Shown here one piece after another: positions 10,801 through 52,111 of a DNA stretch of 64,000 nucleotides. Position numbers and translations under genes: made by a program. Source of the stretch: Nitrosotalea sp. (GTDB lineage: Bacteria; Methylomirabilota; Methylomirabilia; Rokubacteriales; CSP1-6); the NCBI GenBank assembly GCA_035519555.1, contig DATIWG010000074.1:1292-65291 (forward strand). Reading direction: 5' to 3'. Position 1 is the stretch's first letter. Each line of letters opens with the position of its first letter. A model generated the notes under the pieces. It searched no databases, was not told the DNA's origin, and saw only the letters and a program-made list of their open reading frames with translations.

Positions 10801-11235
10801 ATGCTCAATCCAGGAGACAAGGCGCCGGATTTCGCGGGCCGCGACCACACCGGCCAGACGGTGCGGCTGGCCGACTTCAAGGGCAAAACGGTCGTGCTCT
10901 GGTTCTACCCGAAGGCCGACACCCCGGGCTGAACCGCGGAGGGTTGCGGGTTCCGCGACCTGAAAGCCGAGTACGACCGGAAGAACGCGGTGATCCTCGG
11001 CGTGTCGTTCGACACCCCGGCCGAGAACAAGCACTTCGCCGAGAAGTTCTCCTTCAACTTCCCGCTGCTCTGTGACACCGACCGGACGATCGGCACCGCC
11101 TACGGCGCCAACGTGGACCCGCAGAAGGGGGCCCAGCGCGTGGGCGTGGTGATCGATGGGAGCGGCAAGATCAAGGAATGGCACGCCCGTGTGGACGCCC
11201 GCGCCTGGCCCGCCGAGGTGGTGAAGACGCTCTAG
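10801..11235 (+). CDS. PrxQ/BCP-type peroxiredoxin with selenocysteine at the peroxidatic position (TGA 10930-10932 read as Sec)
   Basis: My translation: MLNPGDKAPDFAGRDHTGQTVRLADFKGKTVVLWFYPKADTPG-U-TAEGCGFRD, continuing in frame into track ORF 10990..11235. E. coli BCP has FYPKAMTPGCTVQACGLRD at this site, so U aligns with the peroxidatic Cys and the +5 Cys is kept. Strong RBS. Confidence 0.85.
10936..10956 (+). other. candidate SECIS hairpin for the PrxQ UGA
   Basis: GCGGAG-GGUUGCGGG-UUCCGC: a 6-bp stem (one G-U pair) and a 9-nt loop, starting 4 nt after UGA. Confidence 0.45.
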
Positions 11236-40033: not shown

Positions 40034-40819
40034 TTATCGGGGGTTGAGGCGGAACAGGCGACGCGCGTTCTCGGTGGTGGCCTCGCCCAGCGCGGCCAGC
40101 GTCACCCCTCGCAGCTCCGCCACGCGCGCGGCGGTGATGGCCACCCACGCGGGCTCGTTGCGCTGCCCGCGATGCGGATGCGGCGGCAGGAACGGACAGT
40201 CGGTCTCCAGCACGAGGCGGTCCGACGGCACGAAGCGGGCCACGTCGGGGAGCGCCTTCGCGTTCTTGTAGGTCACCGGGCCCGCCAGCGAGATCGCGAG
40301 ACCCAGGTCGAGGCAGTGCTTGGCCACCTCCACGTCGGCCGAGAAGCAGTGCATGACGCCGCCGACCTCGCCGACGCGCTCGTCGGCGAGGATCGCGAGA
40401 GCCTCCGGGTGCGCCTCGCGGCAGTGGATGACCACCGGCCTGTCGAGACGACGTGCCATGTCGAGCTGACGGCGCAGCACCGTCTCCTGCACATCGCGCG
40501 GGGAAAGATTGCGGAAGAAGTCGAGGCCCATCTCCCCGAGCGCCACCACCTTGGCCGATCCGCGGGCCAGACGCTCCATCGCCTCGAAGTCGGCCTCGGT
40601 CGCCTCCCCCGCGTCGTGGGGGTGGATACCCACGGTGGCGTAGACATCGGCGAGCGACTCGGCGAGCGCCACCGCGGCCGGGTTCGTCTCCCGGTCCGTG
40701 CCGATGGTAACCATCGAGGTGACGCCGGCCGCGCGCGCGCGCTCCAGCACCGCCTCGAGATCGGCGGCGAGCTCGGGGAAGTGCAGGTGCGCGTGCGTGT
40801 CGAACAGGGGCGCGATCAT
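40034..40819 (-). CDS. tatD: TatD family hydrolase
   Basis: From ATG 40819 (ATGA overlap). LFDTHAHLHF, GEMGLDF, VIHCREA, ETDCPFLPP. Confidence 0.9.
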   Translation of the reverse strand: MIAPLFDTHAHLHFPELAADLEAVLERARAAGVTSMVTIGTDRETNPAAVALAESLADVYATVGIHPHDAGEATEADFEAMERLARGSAKVVALGEMGLDFFRNLSPRDVQETVLRRQLDMARRLDRPVVIHCREAHPEALAILADERVGEVGGVMHCFSADVEVAKHCLDLGLAISLAGPVTYKNAKALPDVARFVPSDRLVLETDCPFLPPHPHRGQRNEPAWVAITAARVAELRGVTLAALGEATTENARRLFRLNPR

Positions 40820-42129
40820 GGCCGGCCGGGCTTCGCGGGCTCCGCTCTCACCTTCATGATCCGAGGACCGTCCATCTCCATGATCGTCCACCGCTGGCCG
40901 TTGGCCTCGATCGTCGTGCCGGGCCGCGGCACCACGCCGAGGCGCTGCAGCAGGAACCCCGCGATCGTCTGGTAGTCCGGCGACTCCTCGAGGGGGAGCC
41001 CGACCTGCTCGCGCAGGTCCCGGATCGTCGCGGTCCCGTCAATCATATAGGAACCGTCGGGCAGCCGGGACACCGACGACAGGCGCAGGCTCTCGCGCTC
41101 GTCCCGGATCTCGCCCACGATCTCCTCGAGCAGGTCCTCGGTGGTCACGAGCCCGGCGACCTGGCCGTACTCGTCCACCACGAGAGCAAGCTGGAGACGG
41201 CTCCGCTGGAACTGGCGCAGCACCTCGCTGACCGGCGCGGTCTCCGGCACGAAGAGGGGCGGGTGCATGAGCCGCTCGAGGTTCACCGGCTCGCCCAGGG
41301 CGGCGCACCGGAACAGGTCCCTGATGACCACTACCCCGATCGTCCCTTCGATGGAGCCCCGGTAGACCGGCAGCCGCGTGTGCCCGATCTCGGCGGCGCT
41401 CTTGAGCACCTGGTCCGGCGGCATCTCGACGTCGAGGCCCAGGATGTTCGGCCGGGGCACCATCACGAGGCGCACCGGAGTGTCGGTGAACTGGAACACG
41501 CGGTTGACCAGATCTCGCTCGGCGGCCTCGAACACGCCCTGCGCGGCGCCCTCACGGACGAGGTACTTGACCTCCTCCTCGGAGACGAGCGGCGCGGTCG
41601 GGGTGTCCCGCATGCCGAGCGCGGTCAGGATCAATCGGGTGGCCCAGGTGAGGACGCGACCAGGGCCGGCCAGCCCACGCACCAGCCGGGCAATGAGGGG
41701 GGCCACCACCGCGGCCCAGCGCTCCGGGTTCCGCAGCGCGAGCGCCTTCGGGGTCAGCTCGCCGATGACCAGCGACACGAACGAGATCAGGAGGACGACG
41801 CTGCCCAGCGCGACCGGGCCGCCCCACTTCTCCGCGCCGGGCAGCGCGAGCCCCTGTAACCGGGGGGTGAGGGCCTCCACCGCGGCGGCGCCGCCCACCG
41901 CGGAGGCGAGCGTGCCCACCACCGTGATCGCGATCTGGATGGTGGCCAGGAAGCGGTCGGGATCCCGCTTGAGCTGCTCCGCCACCGCCGCGCCGGGCAG
42001 GCCCTCGCTCCTGAGCTGGTTCAGCCGGCTCGGGCGTGCGGACACCAGCGCGATCTCGGAGCCCGCGAAGAAGCCGTTGGCGAGGATCGACACCCCGATC
42101 AGCACGATCTCGACCCAGATGCTGTCCAT
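40816..42129 (-). CDS. hemolysin-family/CNNM transporter (DUF21 + CBS pair + CorC_HlyC)
   Basis: N-terminal LANGFFAGSEIALVS, TM region, CBS-like middle, C-terminal transporter-associated domain. Confidence 0.9.
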   Translation of the reverse strand: MDSIWVEIVLIGVSILANGFFAGSEIALVSARPSRLNQLRSEGLPGAAVAEQLKRDPDRFLATIQIAITVVGTLASAVGGAAAVEALTPRLQGLALPGAEKWGGPVALGSVVLLISFVSLVIGELTPKALALRNPERWAAVVAPLIARLVRGLAGPGRVLTWATRLILTALGMRDTPTAPLVSEEEVKYLVREGAAQGVFEAAERDLVNRVFQFTDTPVRLVMVPRPNILGLDVEMPPDQVLKSAAEIGHTRLPVYRGSIEGTIGVVVIRDLFRCAALGEPVNLERLMHPPLFVPETAPVSEVLRQFQRSRLQLALVVDEYGQVAGLVTTEDLLEEIVGEIRDERESLRLSSVSRLPDGSYMIDGTATIRDLREQVGLPLEESPDYQTIAGFLLQRLGVVPRPGTTIEANGQRWTIMEMDGPRIMKVRAEPAKPGRP

Positions 42130-42139
42130 GGCCTTGTCC

Positions 42140-43159
42140 TCAGGGGGTGACGGTGAAGCGCAAGCGGCCGATGAGCTGGCCCGACGTGGTGAGCACGTCC
42201 ACGCGGTAGTGCCCCACGACGGGCGGCCTGGGATCGGTGTAACGGGAATAGGTACGGAAGCCCTGCATGCGCCCGCCCATCACCGGCGTGGGCAGGGCCA
42301 CGTCCGCCAGCATCAGCCGGTCCCGCCACCACACATGACGGATGACCTGCCGCACGCCGGCCGGGGCATACACGGCAGTGTAGGCCGCCAGCTCACCCCA
42401 CTCCAGCACGGTCGCCGCGGACAGGATGCGGCCGTCGACCGGGTCCACCGGCTCGAGGTCGGCGACGCCGCGAGCGACCACCGCGCGGGCCAGGAAGAGG
42501 GGCGCGGGGGGCACCAGTACCCGCGCCGACCAGACCAGCGCGAGCGCCGCCACCGCGGCGGCCAGCGCCATCGCGTGGGCGCGCATCCAGCCGAACCTCC
42601 CCTCGCGACGAAAGGCGGGGGCGAGCGCGAGGGCGGCGAGCACCGCGCTGCCCTCGAGGGCCAGGATCGGGCGCACGCCGACCAGCGGTAGCGCCACGTT
42701 GAGGGCGGCGAAGAACGAGAAGCCGAGCAGCGAGTGATTGAGCCAGGGCCGCGGGTGCACCAGCCGCCGGTACAGCGGATCGATCGCGGTGATCAGCGCG
42801 CCCGCCGCCACCAGGGCCGGGAACACCGCGTTGGCCGAGTCGAGCGTGGCCGCCGCGTAGTAGGCGGGGAGCACGAACAGGAGCAGGTTGTGGTAGAGCG
42901 TCTGGATCGTGTAGTCGGCGGCGGTCAGCACGAGGCGCTTGCCGCGCTCGAGCAGCGGCGCCCGCAGCTCGGTGATCAGCACGAAGAGGAGCCACAGGAG
43001 CAGCAGGTAGCCCACGATCCAGGCCACGTGGGGCAGCCCCCGACGGAAGACCAAGAGCGCGCCGAGACCGAGAACCAGCGACGCGATCGAGACGGGCCAG
43101 CCGCCGAGCCAGCCCACCAGCGGCAGCCGCGGGGCGGGCGCCGCGTCCGGCTCGGTCAC
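42140..43159 (-). CDS. membrane protein with C-terminal DUF2914-like domain
   Basis: Distal part of track ORF 42140..43834 from GTG 43159 (GTGA overlap). Multi-TM, then HVWWRD...GGRMQGFRTYSRY...GHYRVDVLTTSGQLIGRLRF, which resembles DUF2914. Confidence 0.65.
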   Translation of the reverse strand: MTEPDAAPAPRLPLVGWLGGWPVSIASLVLGLGALLVFRRGLPHVAWIVGYLLLLWLLFVLITELRAPLLERGKRLVLTAADYTIQTLYHNLLLFVLPAYYAAATLDSANAVFPALVAAGALITAIDPLYRRLVHPRPWLNHSLLGFSFFAALNVALPLVGVRPILALEGSAVLAALALAPAFRREGRFGWMRAHAMALAAAVAALALVWSARVLVPPAPLFLARAVVARGVADLEPVDPVDGRILSAATVLEWGELAAYTAVYAPAGVRQVIRHVWWRDRLMLADVALPTPVMGGRMQGFRTYSRYTDPRPPVVGHYRVDVLTTSGQLIGRLRFTVTP

Positions 43160-43911
43160 GTGGCCACGGGCTCGATCCGCGCCGGGATCCCCTGCTTTCG
43201 CCAGTAGAAGAGGAACAGCGCGATCGTGAAGAGCGACTGGCTCACCGCCAGCGCGCAGTCGAAGAGAACTCGCGCCACGAAGTGATTGGCGCCGGGCACG
43301 GTCCGGAAGACCTGTCCACCGATCACCGCGAGGCCGAAGATCACCACGAAGAGGACGGCGGCGGTCCAGAAGATGCTCCAGCGCTGGCCGGCGGTGAGCT
43401 CGGCGGCCTGCCGCCACGCGGTGAGCGGCGAGCCGCCACCCAGGACGACCGCCGAATCGACGACCGCGAAGCGGATCAGCAGCAACAGAATGGCCACCGA
43501 CACCGCGGTCAGCACCAGGCCGCCCGCGAGCTGGATCGCGGGGCCGGCCGTGTAGATGCCGAGCCAGCCGAGGGACGGCAGCAGGAGCACCCAGATGATC
43601 GTGAAGCGCACCAGCATCAGGCGGGGCCACGCGGCGAACCCTTCGGCCAGGGCCTGCCAGTAGCTGACCGGCACGCCCTGCTTGATGCGCGCGAGGGCGG
43701 AGAGCATCGCGCTCACCACGAAGGGATCGAGCACCACCTGGGCGGTCAGCACGATGCGCAGCGCGCGCCCGGCCGCGTCCTCGCCCGGCTCGAAGAACTC
43801 GAGGTAGTTGAGCAGCACGTGGATCGGCAGCCACACCGTCAGCGAGAGCAGGGTGAACAGATACAGGTGGCGGGCGAGGAGGTGGAACGTCTCCCCGAGG
43901 ACGGCGCGCAC
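43156..43911 (-). CDS. hypothetical integral membrane protein
   Basis: Track ORF (GTG start overlapping the metG stop by 1 nt). Six hydrophobic helices. No family recognised. Confidence 0.6.
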   Translation of the reverse strand: MRAVLGETFHLLARHLYLFTLLSLTVWLPIHVLLNYLEFFEPGEDAAGRALRIVLTAQVVLDPFVVSAMLSALARIKQGVPVSYWQALAEGFAAWPRLMLVRFTIIWVLLLPSLGWLGIYTAGPAIQLAGGLVLTAVSVAILLLLIRFAVVDSAVVLGGGSPLTAWRQAAELTAGQRWSIFWTAAVLFVVIFGLAVIGGQVFRTVPGANHFVARVLFDCALAVSQSLFTIALFLFYWRKQGIPARIEPVAT

Positions 43912-45842
43912 TACTTGACCTTGGAGCCCGAGGGCACGTCCTTGTCGAGGGTGAGGAGCGACACCGTGCCCTCGTGCGAGGCGGCCAAGACCATGCCGTT
44001 GGACTCGACCCCCATCAAGGTGGCGGGCTCGAGATTGGCCACGATCACGACCTTCCGGCCGACCAGGCTCGCCGGCTCGTAGTGCTCGGCCACGCCCGCG
44101 ACCAGCGTGCGCGTCTCCTCCCCCAACCGGATCGTGAGCTTGAGCAGCTTCTTGGACTTCGGCACACGCTCGGCGGCCAGCACCTCGGCCACCCGCAGCT
44201 CCACCTTCTGGAAATCCGCGATCGGGATCTTCCCGGTCCCTGCTCCCTCGGCCCCCGCGCTCCCCTCACCCTGCCCCCTGGCTCCCTCTCTGCCCGCCTT
44301 GGGGAGAGAGCCGGGGTGAGGGGCCTTCGTATCGATCCGTGGAAACAGCCCGGAGATCTTGTTCACCCGCGGCACCGCGGTCAGCCGCCCCACCACGGCC
44401 GCTTCGAGCGTGGGCGCCGCGGTCTGCCCGAGCGCCTCACGAATCTTGCGGGCCGCGTCCGGCAGGAACGGATCCAGCATGATGCCGAGGAACCCCAGCG
44501 AGTCGGCCAGCGTGCACAGCACCCGCTCGAGCCGCGGTCGCCTGGCGGGATCCTTGGCCAGCGCCCACGGCGCGCTCGCGTCTACGTACCGGTTCACGGT
44601 GCCGATGAACGCCCAGATGCCACCGAGCGCCTTCTGGAAGGCGAATTCCCGCATCGCCCGCTCGACCGCGCTCCGCGCCGTCGTCGCCGCGTCTGCGATC
44701 TCCCGATCCGCCGCCTCGATCGGCGCGGTCACCTGCGCCACGGGCCCGGAGGCGGCGATGAGCGTGGTCGCCCGGCTCGCGAGATTGCCGAGGTCGTTGG
44801 CCAGATCGGCGTTCAGCCGGTCGACGAGCGCCTCCTCGCTGAAGCTGGCGTCGAGACCGAAGTTCATCTCGCGCATCAGGAAGTAGCGGAACGCGTCGTG
44901 GCCGTACTTGTCGGTGAGCTGGAAGGCCTCCACCACGTTGCCGATGGACTTGGACATCTTGCTCCCGCCGAGCGACCAGTAGCCGTGGACGTTGAGCCGC
45001 CGATAGAGCGGGATGCCCGCCGCCTTCAGCATGGTGGGCCAGTACACGCCGTGCGGCTTTAGGATGTCCTTGCCGATCAGATGCTCGACGTGTTCCCAGA
45101 GCCCGCGCGTCTTCTGATTCGCCGGGTCGGACACCGCCGAGTAGTAGTTCAGCAACGCGTCGAACCAGACGTAGGTGACGTAGTCGTCGTCGAAGGGCAG
45201 CGGGATGCCCCACACGACCCGCGACTTGGGCCGGCTGATCGACAAATCCTGGAGCGGCTCGCGCAGGAACCCCAGCACCTCGTTGCGGTACCGCTCGGGC
45301 TGGATGAAGCCGGGGTTGTCCTCGAGGTGCTTGATCAGCCAATCCTGGTACTTCGACATCTTGAAGAAGTAGTTCTTCTCCTTGATGAAGGTGAGCGCGG
45401 TCTGGTGATCGGGACACTTGCCGTCCACGATCTCCTTATCGGTGTAGAAGCGCTCGCACCCGTAGCAGTACCAGCCCCCGTACTCCCCGAAGTAGATCTC
45501 CCCCGCGTCGAAGAGCCGCTGCAGGATCTCCTGCACCACCTTCTTGTGCCGCGGCTCGGTGGTGCGGATGAAGTCGTCGTTGGTGATGCCAAGACGCCGC
45601 CAGGTCTCCTGGAAGACCGCCGCGATCTCGTCCGCGTAGGCTTGCGGCGACACTCCGGCCTTGGCCGCTACCTGAGCGATCCGTTCACCGTGCTCGTCGG
45701 TGCCGGTCAGGAGGTACACGCGGTCGCCGGCCAGACGATGGTAGCGGCACATCGCGTCGGCCATGATAGTGGTGCACGCGTGCCCCAGGTGCGGGCGGGC
45801 GTTGACGTAGTAGATCGGGGTGGTGAGGTAGAAGGTGCTCAT
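43911..45842 (-). CDS. metG: methionine--tRNA ligase (with C-terminal tRNA-binding domain)
   Basis: TPIYYVNARPHLGHA (HIGH), KMSKS, four-Cys knuckle (CYGCERF...CPDH), C-terminal Trbp111-like FQKVELRVAEVLAAERVPKSKKLLKLT. Confidence 0.95.
   Translation of the reverse strand: MSTFYLTTPIYYVNARPHLGHACTTIMADAMCRYHRLAGDRVYLLTGTDEHGERIAQVAAKAGVSPQAYADEIAAVFQETWRRLGITNDDFIRTTEPRHKKVVQEILQRLFDAGEIYFGEYGGWYCYGCERFYTDKEIVDGKCPDHQTALTFIKEKNYFFKMSKYQDWLIKHLEDNPGFIQPERYRNEVLGFLREPLQDLSISRPKSRVVWGIPLPFDDDYVTYVWFDALLNYYSAVSDPANQKTRGLWEHVEHLIGKDILKPHGVYWPTMLKAAGIPLYRRLNVHGYWSLGGSKMSKSIGNVVEAFQLTDKYGHDAFRYFLMREMNFGLDASFSEEALVDRLNADLANDLGNLASRATTLIAASGPVAQVTAPIEAADREIADAATTARSAVERAMREFAFQKALGGIWAFIGTVNRYVDASAPWALAKDPARRPRLERVLCTLADSLGFLGIMLDPFLPDAARKIREALGQTAAPTLEAAVVGRLTAVPRVNKISGLFPRIDTKAPHPGSLPKAGREGARGQGEGSAGAEGAGTGKIPIADFQKVELRVAEVLAAERVPKSKKLLKLTIRLGEETRTLVAGVAEHYEPASLVGRKVVIVANLEPATLMGVESNGMVLAASHEGTVSLLTLDKDVPSGSKVK
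44262..44323. repeat. 62-nt imperfect palindromic GC-rich element lying in-frame in the metG interdomain linker
   Basis: CCCCTCACCC (44262-44271) pairs with GGGTGAGGGG (44314-44323). Inner CTCCCTCTCT (44282-44291) pairs with GGGGAGAGAG (44301-44310) with one mismatch. The element encodes APHPGSLPKAGREGARGQGEG. Confidence 0.45.
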
Positions 45843-45863
45843 GCGTCGAGGTGGCCGGCCGCC

Positions 45864-46751
45864 TCAGGCCGGCTTGATGTGGTCGCGGCCTTCCCAGGTG
45901 AGCTGGGCGAGCGGGACCTCCGCCTCGGTGCCGTCCGGGAAGCCGACCACCACCGATTGCTTCAGCACCCGGAGCGAGCGCACCTTGCCGGTCATGCAGC
46001 CGCCTCCGCCGCAATCGGCCGAGCAGGCGCTGTTCACCCGCGGGAGCCGGGAGCGCAGCTCCTCGTAGGTCGAGAACTCGTAGAGCAGGCAGCACTTGAG
46101 CCGCCCGCAGTTGCCGAGCAGGCGGCTGTCGGTGAGCGGCATGTCCTGCCCCTTCGCCATCTTCACCGAGATCGGATCGAACTTGCGCAGGTGCGACGAG
46201 CAGCAGAGCTGCCGGCCACAGGGGCCGATGCCGTCGAGCAGCTTGGTGGTGTCGCGCGCGCCGATCTGGCGCATCTCGATCCGCGCGTGGAACTCGCGGG
46301 CGAGGGCGCGCACGAGGTCGCGGAAGTCCACCCGCTCCTCGGAGTTGAAGAACACGGTGACCCGCCGACGCGACGGCTCGATCTCCACGTCCACGATCTT
46401 CATGGCCAGGGAGCGGCTCCGCGCCAACCGCTGGGAGGTCTCGACACCCTTCACCTCGCGGGTCCGGCGCTCGCGCCAGTCCGTCACCTCGGCCCCGGTG
46501 GCCCGGCGGACGACCTTGCGGTACATGCGGTCCCGCCTGAACTCGGGGATCGGGCGCCGGGGCCGGCGCACCTCACCCACCGTGGTGCCGCCGCCCGTCT
46601 CCACCACCACGAAGTCGCCCACGTGAAGGTCGGCGGCGGTGGTCTGGTAGTCCTCGGCGAGCAGTGGCTCGCGGAGGCGCACACCGATGAGATAGCGGGG
46701 CGTCTCGTCGACCGCGGCCGCGGCGATGGTGGGTTCCATGGCCTCGCTCAT
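45864..46751 (-). CDS. ricT: PSP1 domain protein (YaaT/RicT-like)
   Basis: PSP1 C-terminal block with Cys cluster GPCGRQLCCSSHL...GNCGRLKCCLLYE. Conserved tmk-holB-yaaT synteny. Confidence 0.9.
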   Translation of the reverse strand: MSEAMEPTIAAAAVDETPRYLIGVRLREPLLAEDYQTTAADLHVGDFVVVETGGGTTVGEVRRPRRPIPEFRRDRMYRKVVRRATGAEVTDWRERRTREVKGVETSQRLARSRSLAMKIVDVEIEPSRRRVTVFFNSEERVDFRDLVRALAREFHARIEMRQIGARDTTKLLDGIGPCGRQLCCSSHLRKFDPISVKMAKGQDMPLTDSRLLGNCGRLKCCLLYEFSTYEELRSRLPRVNSACSADCGGGGCMTGKVRSLRVLKQSVVVGFPDGTEAEVPLAQLTWEGRDHIKPA

Positions 46752-46755
46752 GCGA

Positions 46756-47649
46756 TCACGCGCCCTCTCCCGCGAGGCGCCCCAGCAGCACCTCGACGGT
46801 GAGCCGCGGGGAGACGTTGCCCTGGATGGCCAGCCACGCCTCGCGGCAGTCGCGGAGCGCGCCCGTCACCCGCTCGAGCGAGCGCTCGCGCGCCGCCGTC
46901 ACCGCGTCGCTTCGCAGCATCAGACGCGCGGGAGCGTCGGCGAGGCCGCACAGCAGGTCCCGGTACCATAGCCAGCACGCCTCGACGAAGGTCTCCGCGG
47001 CCTGGCGGTCACGGCCCACCTGCTCGCCGAGCCTCAGGATGGCCTCGACCCCGCGCTCCCGCGCCTCGGCGAGGAGCCGCAGGCTGCCCGCGTGGGCGTC
47101 GGTGCGCACGTCGGGGAGCAACGCGGGCACGCCGTCGGTGAGGCGCGGGCGGAAGCGCACGACCTGGCAGCGGGAGAGCACGGTGGCGGGCAGCGCGCGG
47201 ATCTGCGAGAGGACCAGGACGATGACGGTCTGCGCCGGCGGCTCCTCCAGCGTCTTGAGAAACGCCTGGGGCGTCGCCGCGGTCATCTTCTCGGCCTCAT
47301 CGACGACGAAGACCTTCCACGGCGCCTCCATCGGCTTGAGCGCGGCCAGGCGCTCGAGCTCGCGGACCGTCTCGATCCGGAGAGCGTGGGCGCCCTTCGG
47401 ATTGCCCGCGGGCGGCGTGGGCCCGAGCAGGTGCACGTCGGGATGGCGCCCGCGCTCCACCCGCGCGGCCGCGGGCCCGCCGCCGGGCGCCACCAGCGCC
47501 GACGCGAAGGCCAGGGCCGTCGCCTTGCGACCCGAGCCCTCGGGACCGACGAAGGCGTAGGCGTGGGCCACCCGCGACGTGGCGAGCGCGCGGCGCAGGA
47601 GCGTCACCGCCTCGGGCTGGTCGCGGATGCCCTCAAGCGCCACCGGCAT
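46756..47649 (-). CDS. holB: DNA polymerase III subunit delta'
   Basis: HAYAFVGPEGSGRKATALAFA (degenerate P-loop), VFVVDEAEKMT, TVLSRCQ. Confidence 0.85.
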   Translation of the reverse strand: MPVALEGIRDQPEAVTLLRRALATSRVAHAYAFVGPEGSGRKATALAFASALVAPGGGPAAARVERGRHPDVHLLGPTPPAGNPKGAHALRIETVRELERLAALKPMEAPWKVFVVDEAEKMTAATPQAFLKTLEEPPAQTVIVLVLSQIRALPATVLSRCQVVRFRPRLTDGVPALLPDVRTDAHAGSLRLLAEARERGVEAILRLGEQVGRDRQAAETFVEACWLWYRDLLCGLADAPARLMLRSDAVTAARERSLERVTGALRDCREAWLAIQGNVSPRLTVEVLLGRLAGEGA

Positions 47650-48271
47650 CTCCTCGACGGGCCAGGTACTCGTCGACCGCCCGCACCACCTCGACGTGCA
47701 GGACGTCGGCGTCGCGGCCCGCGTCGAGCACCACGACCCGGCGCTTGTCGCTCCGCGCGATCTCGAGATATCCCTCGCGCACGCGCCGGTGGAAGGAGAG
47801 GTCCATCTTCTCGAACGTGTCGAGCGCGCGCGCGCGGATGCGCTGCATGCCGACCGCCGGGTCCAGATCCAGCACCAGCGTGAGGTCCGGCAGCACCCCG
47901 CCGGTGGCGAGCATGTTCAGCTCCTTGATGGTTTGCACGTCCATGCCCTGCCCATAACCCTGGTAGGCCACCGTCGCGTCGGCGTAACGATCCGAGATCA
48001 CCACCGCGCCGCGCGCCAGCGCGGGCGCGATCACACGCGTGACGTGCTCCTGACGGGCCGCCATGAAGAGAAAGGTCTGGGTCAGCGGCGTCGGCGTCGG
48101 GCCGTCGGCCTCGAACAGCGCACGAACGCGCAGGCCCAGCGGCGTGCCGTCGGGCTCACTGGTCTGGACAACTTCGAGGCCCCGGCCGGACAAATAGCGT
48201 GCGAGACGCGCGCACTGGGTCGATTTCCCCGAGCCCTCGACGCCTTCGACCGTGACCAGCGCCCCTCGCAT
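47633..48271 (-). CDS. tmk: dTMP (thymidylate) kinase
   Basis: From ATG 48271. LVTVEGVEGSGKSTQ P-loop, SDRYADATVAYQG, LVLDLD. Confidence 0.9.
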   Translation of the reverse strand: MRGALVTVEGVEGSGKSTQCARLARYLSGRGLEVVQTSEPDGTPLGLRVRALFEADGPTPTPLTQTFLFMAARQEHVTRVIAPALARGAVVISDRYADATVAYQGYGQGMDVQTIKELNMLATGGVLPDLTLVLDLDPAVGMQRIRARALDTFEKMDLSFHRRVREGYLEIARSDKRRVVVLDAGRDADVLHVEVVRAVDEYLARRGDAGGA

Positions 48272-48420
48272 GGGCGTAACTGTAACACACTGATTTGCCG
48301 GGGGCCGCGTCGCCACCATCGTGCCGGCTCAGGGAAATTCGTTCCCTAGTCCTGGCCAAATCGGTTCCTAACGCAAGGCAGCGTAAGGCGCTCGGGCAGG
48401 CATTTCGGCGGCTTTCCCCG

Positions 48421-49460: not shown

Positions 49461-50332
49461 CTCACACGCAGCCGACGCTCGGCGCGCCGGGCGACCGCCC
49501 AGTACCGGAGCGCGGGCGGAGCGAGCGGAAGCGCCCGGCGCGTGACGGCGGCCAGGACCCGAAGCGCACGCTCCCGCCGCCGGTCCCAGGAAAGCCCGTA
49601 CGCGGCGCGAACCGTGGGAGGCAGCAGACCCACCGTCGGCAGGGCGGCCAACCAGAGCGCGGGCCCGAGCACGCGGGAGGCGGATGGCGCCAGGATCTCC
49701 CGCGAGAGGCCGCGGGCGGTATCGGTGACCTCGATCGCACCAGACGCCAGCATCGTCTCGAGATAGTCGTGCAGATGCGCCTCGGTGCGGGGCAGATGGC
49801 CGGCCGGGATCCCGAGATGCATCTCGATCCCGCTCGCCTCCCCGCAGTACCGATCGGCGGCGGCCGGGCTGATCGGCCCCACGAAGAGCCGGTAGGCGAG
49901 GAGGAAGGAGTCCAGCAGGGTGGCGTGCACCCAGGTCAGCAGGGCCGGATCGTGAGCGCTGTAGCCGGCGCCGGCCGGGGCTCCGCCGGCGGGCTCGCCG
50001 AGCCGGCCATGCACACGGTCGTGGATGGCGTTGATCCGCGAGGCCGCGGCGCTGGCCTCCTCGGCCGGTCCGAAGGTGAGCGCGAGCATCGAGCGCAGGG
50101 TCCGGTGCAGGCGTCGGAGCCGGCCCCAGGGCTCGGTCGTGAAGGCGCTGTGCTCGGCAACCCCCCGGGCCACCATCGGGTGCGCGATCTGGAGCAGGAT
50201 CGCCCGGCCCCATCCCGCGAGCAGCACGCGCTCGCGATGGATTGTCCACGCCACGCCGCGGCCCGCGATACCATCGGGTTCGGGCCGATCGGCGACTGCA
50301 GACCGATCGGAGACTGCAAGCAGATCGGGCAT
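49457..50332 (-). CDS. oxygenase MpaB family (DUF2236) protein
   Basis: ERVLLAGWGRAILLQIAHPMVARGVAEHS, INAIHDRVHG, LTWVHATL blocks. The start is uncertain because codons 2-17 coincide with a tandem DNA repeat. Confidence 0.75.
   Translation of the reverse strand: MPDLLAVSDRSAVADRPEPDGIAGRGVAWTIHRERVLLAGWGRAILLQIAHPMVARGVAEHSAFTTEPWGRLRRLHRTLRSMLALTFGPAEEASAAASRINAIHDRVHGRLGEPAGGAPAGAGYSAHDPALLTWVHATLLDSFLLAYRLFVGPISPAAADRYCGEASGIEMHLGIPAGHLPRTEAHLHDYLETMLASGAIEVTDTARGLSREILAPSASRVLGPALWLAALPTVGLLPPTVRAAYGLSWDRRRERALRVLAAVTRRALPLAPPALRYWAVARRAERRLRVR
50285..50329. repeat. 18-nt tandem direct repeat, about 2.5 copies
   Basis: CCGATCGGCGACTGCAGA (50285-50302), CCGATCGGAGACTGCAAG (50303-50320), CAGATCGGG (50321-50329). 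Each unit carries a GATCGG core (the first two carry the CGATCG palindrome). Lies between or over the divergent mpaB-like and Sec-Prx starts. Confidence 0.7.
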
Positions 50333-50437
50333 GGACGCATTATGACGCGGCCGGGCAACTTCCGCCCCGCCGGGAAACTTCTACTGGTCGCCGGTCGTTG
50401 TGTGGTCGTCACCCCTCACTCTGGAAAGGAGAGCGCC

Positions 50438-50977
50438 ATGCGTCGAGCTGCCCCGCTGCTGGTCATGGCCCTGCTGCTGACCGGGCTGGTTCTGCCGGTC
50501 GCCGCCCTGGAAGTCGGCCAGAAGGCGCCCGACTTCACCCTGTCGGCCCCCGGCGGCAAGAAGGTCAATCTGTCGGACCTCACCGCCAAGGGACCCGTCG
50601 TCATCTTCACCTTCATCCAGGCCTTCACCGGCACCTGAACCAAGGAACTGCTCGGCTTCGAGGGGGCCCTGCCCCAGTTCGAGGCCGCCGGCGCCCAGGT
50701 CGTGGGCGTGAGTGCCGACCATGTCGCAACGCTGGAAGCCTGGGGCAAGCAGAACAAGATCAGCTACCTCCTGCTGTCCGATTTCGGCCGCACGATGCTT
50801 CCGGCCTACGACGCGATGGTCACCGACGAGAAGAGCCCGATCTTCCGGTACGCCAAGCGCGCGTACTACGTGATCGACAAGAACGGGGTGGTCCGCTGGG
50901 CCAAGATCCAGACGAACGCTCTCGACCTGCTCGACCCCGCCGACGTGCTCAAGGCGCTGAAGGACTCGGGCGTCTGA
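50438..50977 (+). CDS. exported AhpC/TSA-family peroxiredoxin with selenocysteine at the peroxidatic position (TGA 50636-50638 read as Sec); no Cys residues
   Basis: AAGGAG RBS then ATG 50438. MRRAAPLLVMALLLTGLVLPVAA signal peptide. ...VVIFTFIQAFTGT-U-TKELLGF... continues in frame into track ORF 50702..50977. U occupies the FTxxCTxE peroxidatic site. Confidence 0.85.
50645..50680 (+). other. candidate SECIS region for the exported Prx UGA
   Basis: GAACTG (50645-50650) pairs with CAGTTC (50675-50680). These enclose small GC stems CTCG-GCTT-CGAG (50651-50662) and GGGGC-CCT-GCCCC (50663-50675). The exact fold is ambiguous. Confidence 0.35.
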
Positions 50978-51531
50978 TGGTCGTCACGCGCGCCGCCGGT
51001 GGCCTGATCGCGGCGGCGCTCTGGGCCACGGCCGCGGCGGCGCAGCCCGCCGCCGCGCCGCCGGCCTGGGAGAAGATGGGCGTGCAGACGTACGAGCCGC
51101 CCAAGCCCGCGCCCGTCTTCGCCCTGCCCGCTCTCGACGGCCATACGGTGCGGCTCGAGGACTTCAAGGGCAAGGCGCTCGTCCTCTTCTTCTGGGCCAC
51201 GTGGTGACCGGACTGCCGGGAGGAGTTGCCTTCCGTCAACCGGTTGTACCAGGAGTTCAAGGGCCAGGGGCTCGAGGTCCTGCTGATCTCCTTCCGCGAG
51301 AGCGCCGACCTGGTGAAGCGCACCGCGGCCGAGCGCGGCTACACCGCGCCCGTGCTCCTCGACGCGTCCGGTGACGTCACGGGGCGAATCTACGGCGTGT
51401 GGGGGCCACCCACCGCCTACTTCGTGAACCGCGAAGGGCGTCTCGTCGGCCGGTTGATGGGGGCCAAGGACTGGAGCAGCCCCGCCGCGCGCGACCTGAT
51501 CCGCTCGCTCGTCGCCCCGGCGCCCCGCTGA
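50977..51531 (+). CDS. exported TlpA/ResA-like thioredoxin-fold protein with U-x-x-C active site (TGA 51205-51207 read as Sec)
   Basis: ATG 50977 overlaps the upstream TGA (TGATG). Signal-like GGLIAAALWATAAAAQP. ...ALVLFFWATW-U-PDCREELP... continues in frame into track ORF 51226..51531. It matches WxxWCxxC of TlpA/ResA, with U replacing the first Cys. Confidence 0.85.
51219..51234 (+). other. candidate SECIS hairpin for the TlpA-like UGA
   Basis: GGAGG-AGUUGC-CUUCC: a 5-bp stem (one G-U pair), 12 nt after UGA. An alternative CCGG-ACUG-CCGG lies at 51208-51219. Confidence 0.4.
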
Positions 51532-51541
51532 GCCGCCCCGG

Positions 51542-52111
51542 CTAGCCGCGCCCCGCCGCCAGCGGGGGCGGGCCCCCCTGATCCCGGGGAGCCCCGGCCA
51601 TCGCGATGAGCGCCCGCACCAGATCGGTGAGCGCGGCACGGGCGGCCGGATCCACGAGCCGGCCGTCCTGGAAGTGGCCGGACTCGAGGTAGACGCTCGT
51701 GGGCACCACCAGCGCGCCGAACCACGCGAGCACGCCGCGAAGCTGCCAGTCCACGCCGAGGTAGTGGTGCGGCGTGGCGCCCATCGCGACGATGCCCACC
51801 GGCTTGGCCCGCAGCGCCTCCAGCGGGGTGAGGTCGAGGAGGTTCTTGAGCGCCCCGGTGTACGACGCGCGGTAGACCGGGCTCGCCAGCAGGACCGCGT
51901 CGGCTGCGGCGAGCGCGCCGACCACGCGCGCCGTGTCGTCGGTGAAGCGATCGAGCGGCCGCCCGTCCGCGAACGAGACGCGGTGCTCGCCGAGGCTGAG
52001 CACGGTGACCGCGATGCCGGGCTCCGCGGCGGCGGTCTCCGCCGCGAACCGCACCGCCGCGTCGAGGCGGCCCGGTGGGGTGACCGCGCCGACGACCACG
52101 GCGAGCCTCAT
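51542..52111 (-). CDS. NAD(P)H-dependent FMN reductase (SsuE-like)
   Basis: From ATG 52111 (ATGA overlap). LASPVYRASYTGALKNLLD is the typical FMN_red block. Confidence 0.85.
   Translation of the reverse strand: MRLAVVVGAVTPPGRLDAAVRFAAETAAAEPGIAVTVLSLGEHRVSFADGRPLDRFTDDTARVVGALAAADAVLLASPVYRASYTGALKNLLDLTPLEALRAKPVGIVAMGATPHHYLGVDWQLRGVLAWFGALVVPTSVYLESGHFQDGRLVDPAARAALTDLVRALIAMAGAPRDQGGPPPLAAGRG

Follow-up and report, generated by a model that had tools for sequence, protein, structure and literature searches.

Two overlapping genes in Methylomirabilota predicted to encode exported selenoproteins, a peroxiredoxin and a TlpA/ResA-like partner

Two neighboring reading frames that are each interrupted by a single TGA codon could be read as four small genes or as two full-length selenoprotein genes, and in the second case it can be asked whether the two proteins work together outside the cytoplasm. 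This question is raised by a locus in a 64-kb stretch of DNA (64,000 nucleotides (nt), hereafter the window), which covers positions 1,292 to 65,291 of contig DATIWG010000074.1 (assembly GCA_035519555.1; Methylomirabilota, Rokubacteriales). All positions given here are those of the window, which has a G+C content of 70.8%. A preliminary description made from the letters of the window had joined four open reading frame (ORF) fragments across two TGA codons to give gene 1, a peroxiredoxin (Prx) with selenocysteine (Sec, U) and no Cys, and gene 2, a TlpA/ResA-like protein (Tlp) with a UxxC active site. It had also proposed that both proteins are exported and that they form a relay for the reduction of peroxide. 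Reading of the sequence confirmed the two joined genes with their coordinates, the TGATG junction and the AAGGAG ribosome-binding site. The features of the pair are as follows.

50426..50431, + strand: Shine-Dalgarno sequence AAGGAG of gene 1, read from the sequence, with the ATG 6 nt downstream
50438..50977, + strand: gene 1, a predicted exported 1-Sec peroxiredoxin with a BCP/PrxQ- and AhpE-like fold; 179 amino acids, U67, free of Cys
50636..50638, + strand: UGA codon read as Sec in gene 1, at the peroxidatic residue (T-G-T-U-T-K-E)
50975..50979, + strand: TGATG stop/start overlap, 1 nt in the window, indicating translational coupling
50977..51531, + strand: gene 2, a predicted exported TlpA/ResA-like thiol:disulfide oxidoreductase; 184 amino acids, active site W-U77-P-D-C80
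51205..51207, + strand: UGA codon read as Sec in gene 2, at the position of the N-terminal nucleophile in CxxC

Selenocysteine at the two in-frame UGA codons

Gene 1 runs from the ATG at 50438 to the TGA stop at 50975-50977 and contains a sole in-frame TGA, at 50636-50638, in the context VVIFTFIQAFTGT-U-TKELLGF (in plain translation FTFIQAFTGT, a stop, then TKELLGF). A Shine-Dalgarno sequence similar to that of gene 1 precedes the chosen start in most orthologues. When U is read as C, the Pfam AhpC-TSA/Redoxin domain spans this TGA uninterrupted (residues 26-154, E = 1.3e-30). The closest sequences in PDB were the archaeal BCP/PrxQ proteins 2ywn, 2cx3 and 3hjp (E of about 7e-22, range 1e-22 to 1e-20), along with the 1-Cys protein AhpE. 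An AlphaFold2 model was made of a Cys homologue (P0014) that stood in for gene 1 and had a predicted local distance difference test score (pLDDT) of 87.6. Its top Foldseek matches were exclusively peroxiredoxins (Bcp4, PrxQ, AhpE), with target-normalised template-modelling (TM) scores of 0.8-0.9, and its N-terminal 25 residues were disordered, with low pLDDT. In the motif T64-G-T-U67 of gene 1 the Thr at -3 is kept, and R141 is invariant in the alignments. Gene 1 reached no curated NCBIfam peroxiredoxin model, with scores of 32.6 for PrxU (NF040737; cut-off 270) and 51.6 for BCP (NF006960; cut-off 140).

Gene 2 extends from the ATG at 50977-50979 to the TGA stop at 51529-51531, with one in-frame TGA at 51205-51207 (LVLFFWATW-U-PDCREELPSV). 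The protein has a single Cys, C80, which closes the UxxC motif. With U again read as C, the AhpC-TSA/Redoxin domain extends across this TGA (residues 43-156, E = 8.8e-27), and Thioredoxin_8 and Thioredoxin also match. The best PDB match was a thioredoxin-family protein from Geobacter (3kcm, E = 7e-30), followed by ResA, TlpA and DsbE. The cis-Pro loop is kept; its P145 does not vary and lines up with the Pro of 3kcm and of ResA. The scores of gene 2 were below the NCBIfam cut-offs for ResA (NF002854, 95.8 vs 170), TlpA (NF047696, 70.1 vs 230) and WAxxUGC (NF041054, 52.7 vs 300). Judged by these comparisons, gene 2 belongs to the TlpA/ResA superfamily only, outside the WAxxUGC family. Its Cys homologues carry the name 'TlpA family protein disulfide reductase'.

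Evidence about the two TGA codons also came from related loci. We scanned one genome per GTDB species and applied tblastn to the loci found, which numbered 80 and came nearly all from Methylomirabilota/Rokubacteria/NC10. The catalytic column of the Prx was TGA in every locus that covered it (79 of the 80), and a TGA-containing TlpA-like gene lay directly downstream of the Sec-Prx in 68 of the 80. Protein searches with both genes returned two classes of relatives. The first class contains many C-terminal 'proteins' of 101-109 amino acids that are 70-100% identical to the query and start right after the TGA; these are orthologues truncated by gene callers. The relatives of the second class are full-length, with 50-65% identity, and have Cys in precisely the column that holds U. 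For gene 1 these Cys homologues (P0012, P0013, P0014, P0019, P0021, P0023 and P0050; 50-57% identity) read, for example, TKDCAEEI, NKTCIDEI or AALCTAEI at this site. For gene 2 (P0122-P0133 and others; 56-63% identity) they read WCPDC, WCPAC or WCPPC. The preliminary description had placed U at the catalytic Cys column of both proteins, and the Cys-aligned homologues bear this out.

TGA is also the commonest genuine stop in the window, where it ends 25 of the 38 long genes. A general reassignment of TGA to a sense codon is therefore excluded. Taken together, these comparisons make it almost certain that both genes are genuine selenoprotein genes. Two further points favor this reading. A third selenoprotein gene is present in the window, and the lineage makes heavy use of Sec, with 63 predicted selenoprotein genes reported for a metagenome-assembled genome of Methylomirabilota (review PMC13188914, citing Deng et al. 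2026).

Several public entries have other residues at the Sec column. Gene calls on short contigs from the Joint Genome Institute (JGI; P0002-P0007, P0009 and P0134) have Trp there, and in these the terminal TGA is read through as well (for example ...SGAWAGR). Such Trp 'homologues' are evidently an artefact of translation with TGA as Trp (code 4). In the full-length entries P0008, P0121 and P0138 the catalytic residue is replaced by Gly (Prx GGVGTKE, Tlp WGPDC) or by Leu (WLPDC), and these could be single-base TGA variants, inactive copies or errors. In L021, L030 and L060 the Tlp gene is split into two high-scoring segment pairs, an apparent frameshift. Two copies of the Sec-Prx per genome, with or without the partner, were found in L040/L073 (on one contig, about 14 kb apart), L018/L022, L019/L021 and L052/L066.

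Candidate SECIS hairpins

Folding of the regions after both UGA codons, which the preliminary description had suggested, gave hairpins that resemble a bacterial selenocysteine insertion sequence (bSECIS), the type of mRNA structure to which SelB·Sec-tRNA(Sec) is recruited. They lie 12-19 nt past the respective UGA and are supported by covariation.

51214..51238, + strand: candidate bSECIS hairpin of gene 2, core CGGGAGG-AGUUG-CCUUCCG (51217-51235), loop GU at +21/+22 from the U of the UGA
50654..50686, + strand: candidate bSECIS hairpin of gene 1, lower stem GGCUUCGA/UUCGAGGCC, upper stem GGGGC/GCCCC, extendable to 50639-50700

The core of the gene-2 hairpin begins 12 nt past the UGA, and the hairpin has a folding energy of -20.9 kcal/mol (z = -2.96). 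Over 69 orthologues the stem pairs in 97.7% of cells, and RNAalifold independently recovers it. Three pairs of the stem have double compensatory changes, for example CGAGAGG/CCUCUCG in L028 and CGGUCGG/CCGACCG in L055. The change in L055 also swaps two amino acids. The most telling evidence for the gene-2 hairpin is the retention of rare codons. The Leu of the loop is encoded by UUG or UUA in 68 of the 69 sequences and the Pro of the 3' arm by CCU in 67 of them, and the genes of the window use these codons at frequencies of 2.8% (Leu UUG/UUA) and 4.4% (Pro CCU). In Cys forms of gene 2 (L090, L092 and L094) the REELPS peptide is often kept, yet the stem is mismatched or the loop is changed.

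The gene-1 hairpin, when extended to 50639-50700, gives a 65-nt fold of -33 kcal/mol. Across orthologues the lower stem is GGCUUCGA/UUCGA(A/G)GCC and the upper stem is variable. Among 77 orthologues 84.8% of the cells of this long hairpin are paired, with compensatory changes at 9 of the 13 pairs, and none of 500 shuffles reached this level. The hairpin is in register (at least 11 of the 13 pairs) in 51 of the 77 sequences, and most of the others shift the upper stem alone. It is lost in the Cys form L004. In a subclade formed by L001 and L014-L017 the long hairpin is broken, and a perfect 7-base-pair (bp) stem with a G(C/U)UU loop is the sole hairpin there. A third solution, CCGGGC...GCCCGG, is present in L045, L059-L062, L079 and L082. 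In the window the alternative short hairpin (7 bp, loop GCUU, 50648-50665, +13 to +30) has one mismatch. The long hairpin can thus form without mismatches in gene 1 of the window, the short one with a single mismatch, and either may function. The short hairpin was also considered as a family-wide SECIS of gene 1 and was rejected at 47.7% paired, which does not exceed shuffles.

Export, coupling and a proposed redox relay

The N-termini that had been described as signal-peptide-like have a pattern that is conserved in form across the orthologues of both genes.

50438..50506, + strand: predicted signal peptide of the Sec-translocon type of gene 1, MRRAAPLLVMALLLTGLVLPVAA followed by LEVGQKAPDF
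50977..51042, + strand: predicted signal peptide or N-terminal anchor of gene 2, MVVTRAAGGLIAAALWATAAAA followed by QPAAAPP, with no lipobox

About 90 orthologues of gene 1 have 1-4 Arg/Lys residues, then a hydrophobic segment 12-18 residues long and an A-x-A motif that abuts the mature start LEVGQKAPDF. The architecture of this region is constant across orthologues and its residues are variable. Cytoplasmic peroxiredoxins such as 2ywn start at the point equivalent to LEVGQKAPDF. In essentially all orthologues of gene 2 an n-region, an h-region and AxA are found ahead of (A)PDFA.../QPAAAPP. Neither protein shows a lipobox or a conserved twin-arginine motif. These sequence patterns, together with the disordered N-terminus of the P0014 model, make it very probable that both proteins are exported.

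The translational coupling suggested by the 1-nt overlap in the window holds across related loci. The Prx and Tlp genes overlap by 4 nt (ATGA) in 58 junctions and by 1 nt in 17, and are separated by a 2-nt gap in 2, so that an overlap of one of these two lengths is present in 75 of the 81 scored pairs. The coupled pair is kept in about 70 related species. The window falls within the same clade as these loci. Those nearest to it are 85-90% identical and share its neighboring MPAB_Lcp_cat, FMN-reductase, luciferase-like and Lhr genes. The flanks differ by clade and consist of MPAB/FMN_red, RHS/Big_7 or ABC_sub_bind genes. Because the flanking genes vary between loci, only the Prx/Tlp pair itself is conserved.

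The pair is also found with Cys in one of its members. Cys-Prx/Sec-Tlp pairs occur in L004-L007 and L099, and Sec-Prx/Cys-Tlp pairs in L090-L095. As for a Cys/Cys pair among close relatives, the Prx P0013 has a Tlp partner whose contig ends ahead of the active site, and the contig of P0014 ends at the Prx stop. In L086 (Acidobacteriota) and L087 (Myxococcales) the order is reversed, and the gene immediately 5' of the Sec-Prx encodes a TlpA-like protein with Cys (GATWCxxC). In L098 the gene that lies 37 nt after a distant Cys-Prx (P0050) encodes a classical thioredoxin that is exported (897-1286; signal peptide, WCPTC). It is a non-orthologous replacement of the TlpA-like partner in the Tlp slot.

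In one Prx subclade with the sequence FIAAFTPT-U-TKEL (L058:3540-3953, L069:3542-3964, L080:3539-3952) the place of the TlpA-like gene is taken by one for a conserved protein of about 137 amino acids that has no family assignment. It has a lipoprotein-like N-terminus (...SAAC...) and is a putative lipoprotein.

As had been noted at the outset, the 179-amino-acid Prx of the window contains zero Cys, and the same is true of the mature Prx in nearly all orthologues. A selenenic acid on U67 could therefore be resolved only by an external thiol or selenol. By analogy, the pair is best read as a selenium version of the ScsB→TlpA→PprX pathway of Caulobacter crescentus, in which TlpA reduces the periplasmic PrxQ protein PprX and which has been called the first pathway for peroxide reduction in a bacterial envelope (Cho et al. 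2012, PMC3322552). In the mechanism that we propose, both proteins would cross the membrane unfolded through the Sec translocon. The U67 selenolate of the Prx, activated by Thr64 and Arg141, would reduce H2O2 or an organic/lipid hydroperoxide and would be converted to selenenic acid. Because the Prx has no resolving Cys, the next attack is proposed to come from the partner, with the U77 selenolate of the Tlp reacting with the Prx selenenic acid to give a transient inter-protein Se-Se bond. Cys80 of the Tlp would then resolve this link, which would leave an intramolecular selenenylsulfide in the Tlp and free the reduced Prx. The oxidised Tlp would be re-reduced by a membrane transporter of the CcdA/DsbD/ScsB type that is encoded elsewhere.

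The idea of a peroxide-reduction relay, which had been put forward from the window alone, is strengthened by the retention of the pair in about 70 species and across Sec/Cys switches of either partner. It is also strengthened by the exported thioredoxin that takes the TlpA-like slot in the distant Cys relative L098, and because a biochemically proven Cys analogue exists in the Caulobacter pathway (PMC3322552). From these data it is likely that gene 1 and gene 2 are a functional redox pair. It is also fairly likely, if somewhat less so, that they are a two-gene operon whose products, both secreted selenoproteins, act as a redox couple outside the cytoplasm. For the substrate of the Prx, peroxide is modestly favored.

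A stricter form of this mechanism is tentative and rather doubtful. In this form the relay would be obligately Se-to-Se through an inter-protein diselenide (Prx-Se-Se-Tlp), and synthesis of the reductant would be gated by insertion of Sec into the Prx. Ribosomes that stop at UGA-67 do not get as far as the TGATG, and the supply of selenium would then set the stoichiometry of both partners. To our knowledge, an inter-protein diselenide as a catalytic intermediate is essentially without precedent in natural enzymology.

Several observations weigh against the reading of the pair as an exported, selenium-based couple for peroxide reduction. Some of them concern Sec insertion. RNAalifold gives no consensus structure over all 77 gene-1 sequences, because the hairpins differ between subclades. 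There are at least three mutually exclusive gene-1 hairpin solutions in separate subclades, a pattern that points to SECIS turnover in a single orthologous gene. In the main gene-1 hairpin the apical loop (CCU) is without the G/U typical of SelB-binding loops. A scan of the whole window at the Rfam gathering threshold gave no match and no bacterial SECIS family. Neither selA, selB, selD nor tRNA-Sec was found within the 64-kb window (Pfam on about 40 window genes; ARAGORN). ARAGORN detected no tRNA in the window, and in about 100 related loci it gave only tRNA-Lys and tRNA-Arg (L019) and no tRNA-Sec. 

The other points concern export, the partner and the chemistry of the Prx. The signal peptides were called by rule and not by a trained predictor. 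About 10% of loci (L048, L051, L052, L058, L069, L073 and L080) have a Sec-Prx without a Tlp gene, and CcdA, DsbD and ScsB were not found in the window or within the 3-10-kb flanks of related loci. Finally, the Pro at -7 of the PxxxTxxC motif, which aligns to the Pro of 2cx3 and 2ywn, is Ile in gene 1 and Ile/Leu family-wide. This Pro has been called 'absolutely conserved' in peroxiredoxins (PMC3322552). With Pro replaced by Ile/Leu, the peroxidase chemistry of the Prx may be altered and activity is not a given, a correction to the original proposal of a peroxide relay.

The missing Pro raises the possibility that gene 1 has a Prx fold and is not a peroxidase. It would then act on some other substrate, such as a sulfoxide, a metal/metalloid or a sulfenic or selenenic acid on a protein, and would still be recycled by the Tlp. 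The scores far under the cut-offs of all NCBIfam peroxiredoxin equivalogs fit this explanation, as does the exported Prx-like protein PrxL of Caulobacter, which has no detectable peroxidase activity (PMC3322552). However, gene 1 retains the Thr at -3, the peroxidatic position and the Arg, and the structurally nearest proteins are all true peroxiredoxins. PrxL is without all of these residues, whereas the gene-1 family is without the Pro only. We consider a function other than that of a peroxidase to be unlikely.

The chemistry could also run toward oxidation. The Prx, driven by peroxide, would oxidise the TlpA-like protein, which would pass the oxidising equivalent to envelope proteins for disulfide formation or as a redox signal. 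Comparable designs are Prx4/GPx7-PDI in the endoplasmic reticulum and Orp1-Yap1. The first two chemical steps would be the same as in the mechanism that we favor, a 1-Sec Prx with an obligate partner suits such a design, and none of CcdA, DsbD and ScsB adjoins the pair in any locus examined. However, proteins of the TlpA/ResA family are reductants, kept reduced by CcdA/DsbD. The electron donors of TlpA/ResA proteins are commonly encoded elsewhere, so their local absence is weak evidence. In addition, the pathway proven in Caulobacter works toward reduction (PMC3322552). An oxidising role thus seems improbable.

Somewhat less probable again is that the two genes are co-expressed and functionally independent, with the Tlp used in the maturation of cytochrome c or a Cu centre (like ResA, CcmG and TlpA) and the Prx reduced in some other way. 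Gene 2 is most like ResA, TlpA and DsbE, and in some loci the Prx is alone. By contrast, genes for cytochrome maturation or cytochrome oxidase flank the pair in no locus, and the overlap is retained in about 75 loci despite the changing flanks. The need of the Cys-free mature Prx for an external thiol or selenol and the presence of a different exported thioredoxin-fold gene in the partner slot of L098 also count against independent functions. The explanation that the TGAs are real stops, in pseudogenes, from sequencing or assembly errors or as the ends of four small genes, agrees with the four ORFs given by gene callers and with public annotation that labels the pieces 'partial', yet it is effectively refuted by the comparative data, which place the same codon at the same catalytic column in about 80 independently assembled species, with strong conservation on either side of the TGA, Cys homologues, structured RNA after it, and downstream 'ORFs' that are without N-terminal domain halves of their own.

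Relation to known systems

We compared the exported redox couple proposed here with characterized and predicted systems. It resembles the Caulobacter ScsB→TlpA→PprX pathway in having a (here predicted) exported Prx of the BCP/PrxQ type and an exported partner of the TlpA family. As in PprX, the signal peptide is an N-terminal extension of about 20 amino acids on an otherwise ordinary Prx. The two systems differ in several ways. Both catalytic residues are Sec here and Cys in Caulobacter, and PprX forms an intramolecular disulfide, whereas the Prx described here is without a resolving Cys and without the motif Pro. The genes pprX (CC1673) and tlpA (CC2210) are unlinked, whereas the genes studied here overlap in one operon. 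In Caulobacter the donor is ScsB, whereas no gene for a membrane donor was found here in the window or in related flanks. Lastly, Caulobacter belongs to the Alphaproteobacteria and the window to the Methylomirabilota. The preliminary description knew of no characterised coupled exported pair. This stands in that the Caulobacter relay genes are unlinked; it does not stand for the relay as such, since a characterised exported Prx/TlpA relay exists in Cys form.

AhpE of Mycobacterium tuberculosis is reduced by mycoredoxin/mycothiol. It is similar to the gene-1 product in being a 1-Cys-type Prx of similar size and fold (PDB 1xxu, 4x0x; TM about 0.9) that needs an external reductant. Unlike the gene-1 product, AhpE is a cytoplasmic protein that uses Cys and has the motif Pro.

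Among selenoproteins, gene 1 resembles the Sec-Prx family (PF00578, TxxU), which includes PrxU of Eubacterium acidaminophilum, in having an AhpC/TSA domain with Sec at the peroxidatic position (PMC13188914, PMC2398784). It differs from PrxU and this family in that it is predicted to be exported, has no Cys at all and falls far short of the NCBIfam PrxU cut-off. A further difference is that the review gives PxxxTxxU as conserved (PMC13188914), whereas gene 1 has Ile in place of the Pro. Gene 2 is exactly of the class of the UxxC families named Prx-like thiol:disulfide oxidoreductase and thiol-disulfide isomerase-like (cd02966, TlpA-like; PMC13188914, PMC2398784). Those families are computational predictions without a partner or function, whereas gene 2 is coupled to a Sec-Prx gene in an operon that is conserved.

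Adjacent selenoprotein genes have been reported from metagenomes, namely Prx/SelW-like, Prx-like/AhpD-like and, in a single read, Prx/Prx-like 2 (PMC2398784, PMC13188914). The operon studied here is like these in having two redox selenoprotein genes side by side, which suggests a shared pathway. By contrast with them, a pair of an exported Prx (TxxU) and a TlpA-like protein (UxxC) is absent from that list, and the pair is conserved in about 70 species with Sec/Cys switching.

Both selenoprotein families, adjacent selenoprotein genes and a TlpA→Prx envelope relay in Cys form are thus already known. In the literature compared, which comprised sources other than Deng et al. 2026, we found no description of a phylum-wide, coupled, doubly-Sec exported Prx/TlpA operon with a Cys-free, Pro-less Prx. 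The same body of literature contained no paper that links selenoproteins of Rokubacteria/Methylomirabilota to a Prx/TlpA pair. The finding is solid, testable and widespread, yet it would probably not surprise a selenoprotein specialist much.

If the proposed mechanism is correct, TlpA→PprX, the only peroxide-reduction pathway known from a bacterial envelope, would gain a selenium-based operon form that is a hallmark of a soil and groundwater phylum. There would then be a natural relay with Sec in both partners, and the reason for the selection of Sec could be tested cleanly in the sister lineages that have switched one partner to Cys. The naturally occurring Sec/Sec, Cys/Sec and Sec/Cys pairs would be a ready system for studying the role of Sec in an oxidising compartment. 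The two proteins, as exported selenoproteins of the Sec-translocon type, would also join the few known extracytoplasmic selenoenzymes.

The comparisons also expose a systematic error in annotation. The Prx/Tlp pair is usually annotated as four gene fragments. Hundreds of public entries are 'partial' or 'hypothetical' fragments of 66-109 amino acids, and some of the JGI entries have Trp at the UGA.

The window also contains a third selenoprotein gene, which lies apart from the pair.

10801-11235, + strand: third selenoprotein gene, a canonical cytoplasmic BCP/PrxQ, with a TGA at 10930-10932 (Pfam AhpC-TSA, E = 1e-36)

Its product reads MLNPGDKAPDF...VLWFYPKADTPG-U-TAEGCGF..., with PxxxTxxU intact and a Cys five residues downstream. 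The gene has an AAGGAGG ribosome-binding site and is without a signal peptide. The hairpin after its UGA has a GUU loop at +21-23, a geometry that matches that of gene 2.

A scan of 50150-51750 for promoter and terminator consensus sequences found nothing, and such a scan carries little information at 71% G+C. Upstream of the pair, a conserved housekeeping block lies on the opposite strand.

40816-48319, - strand: genes for a CNNM/CorC transporter, methionyl-tRNA synthetase (MetRS), PSP1, DNA polymerase III delta' and thymidylate kinase

This block is syntenic with the closest contigs of Rokubacteria (L001-L003), which confirms that the window is chromosomal DNA of Methylomirabilota.

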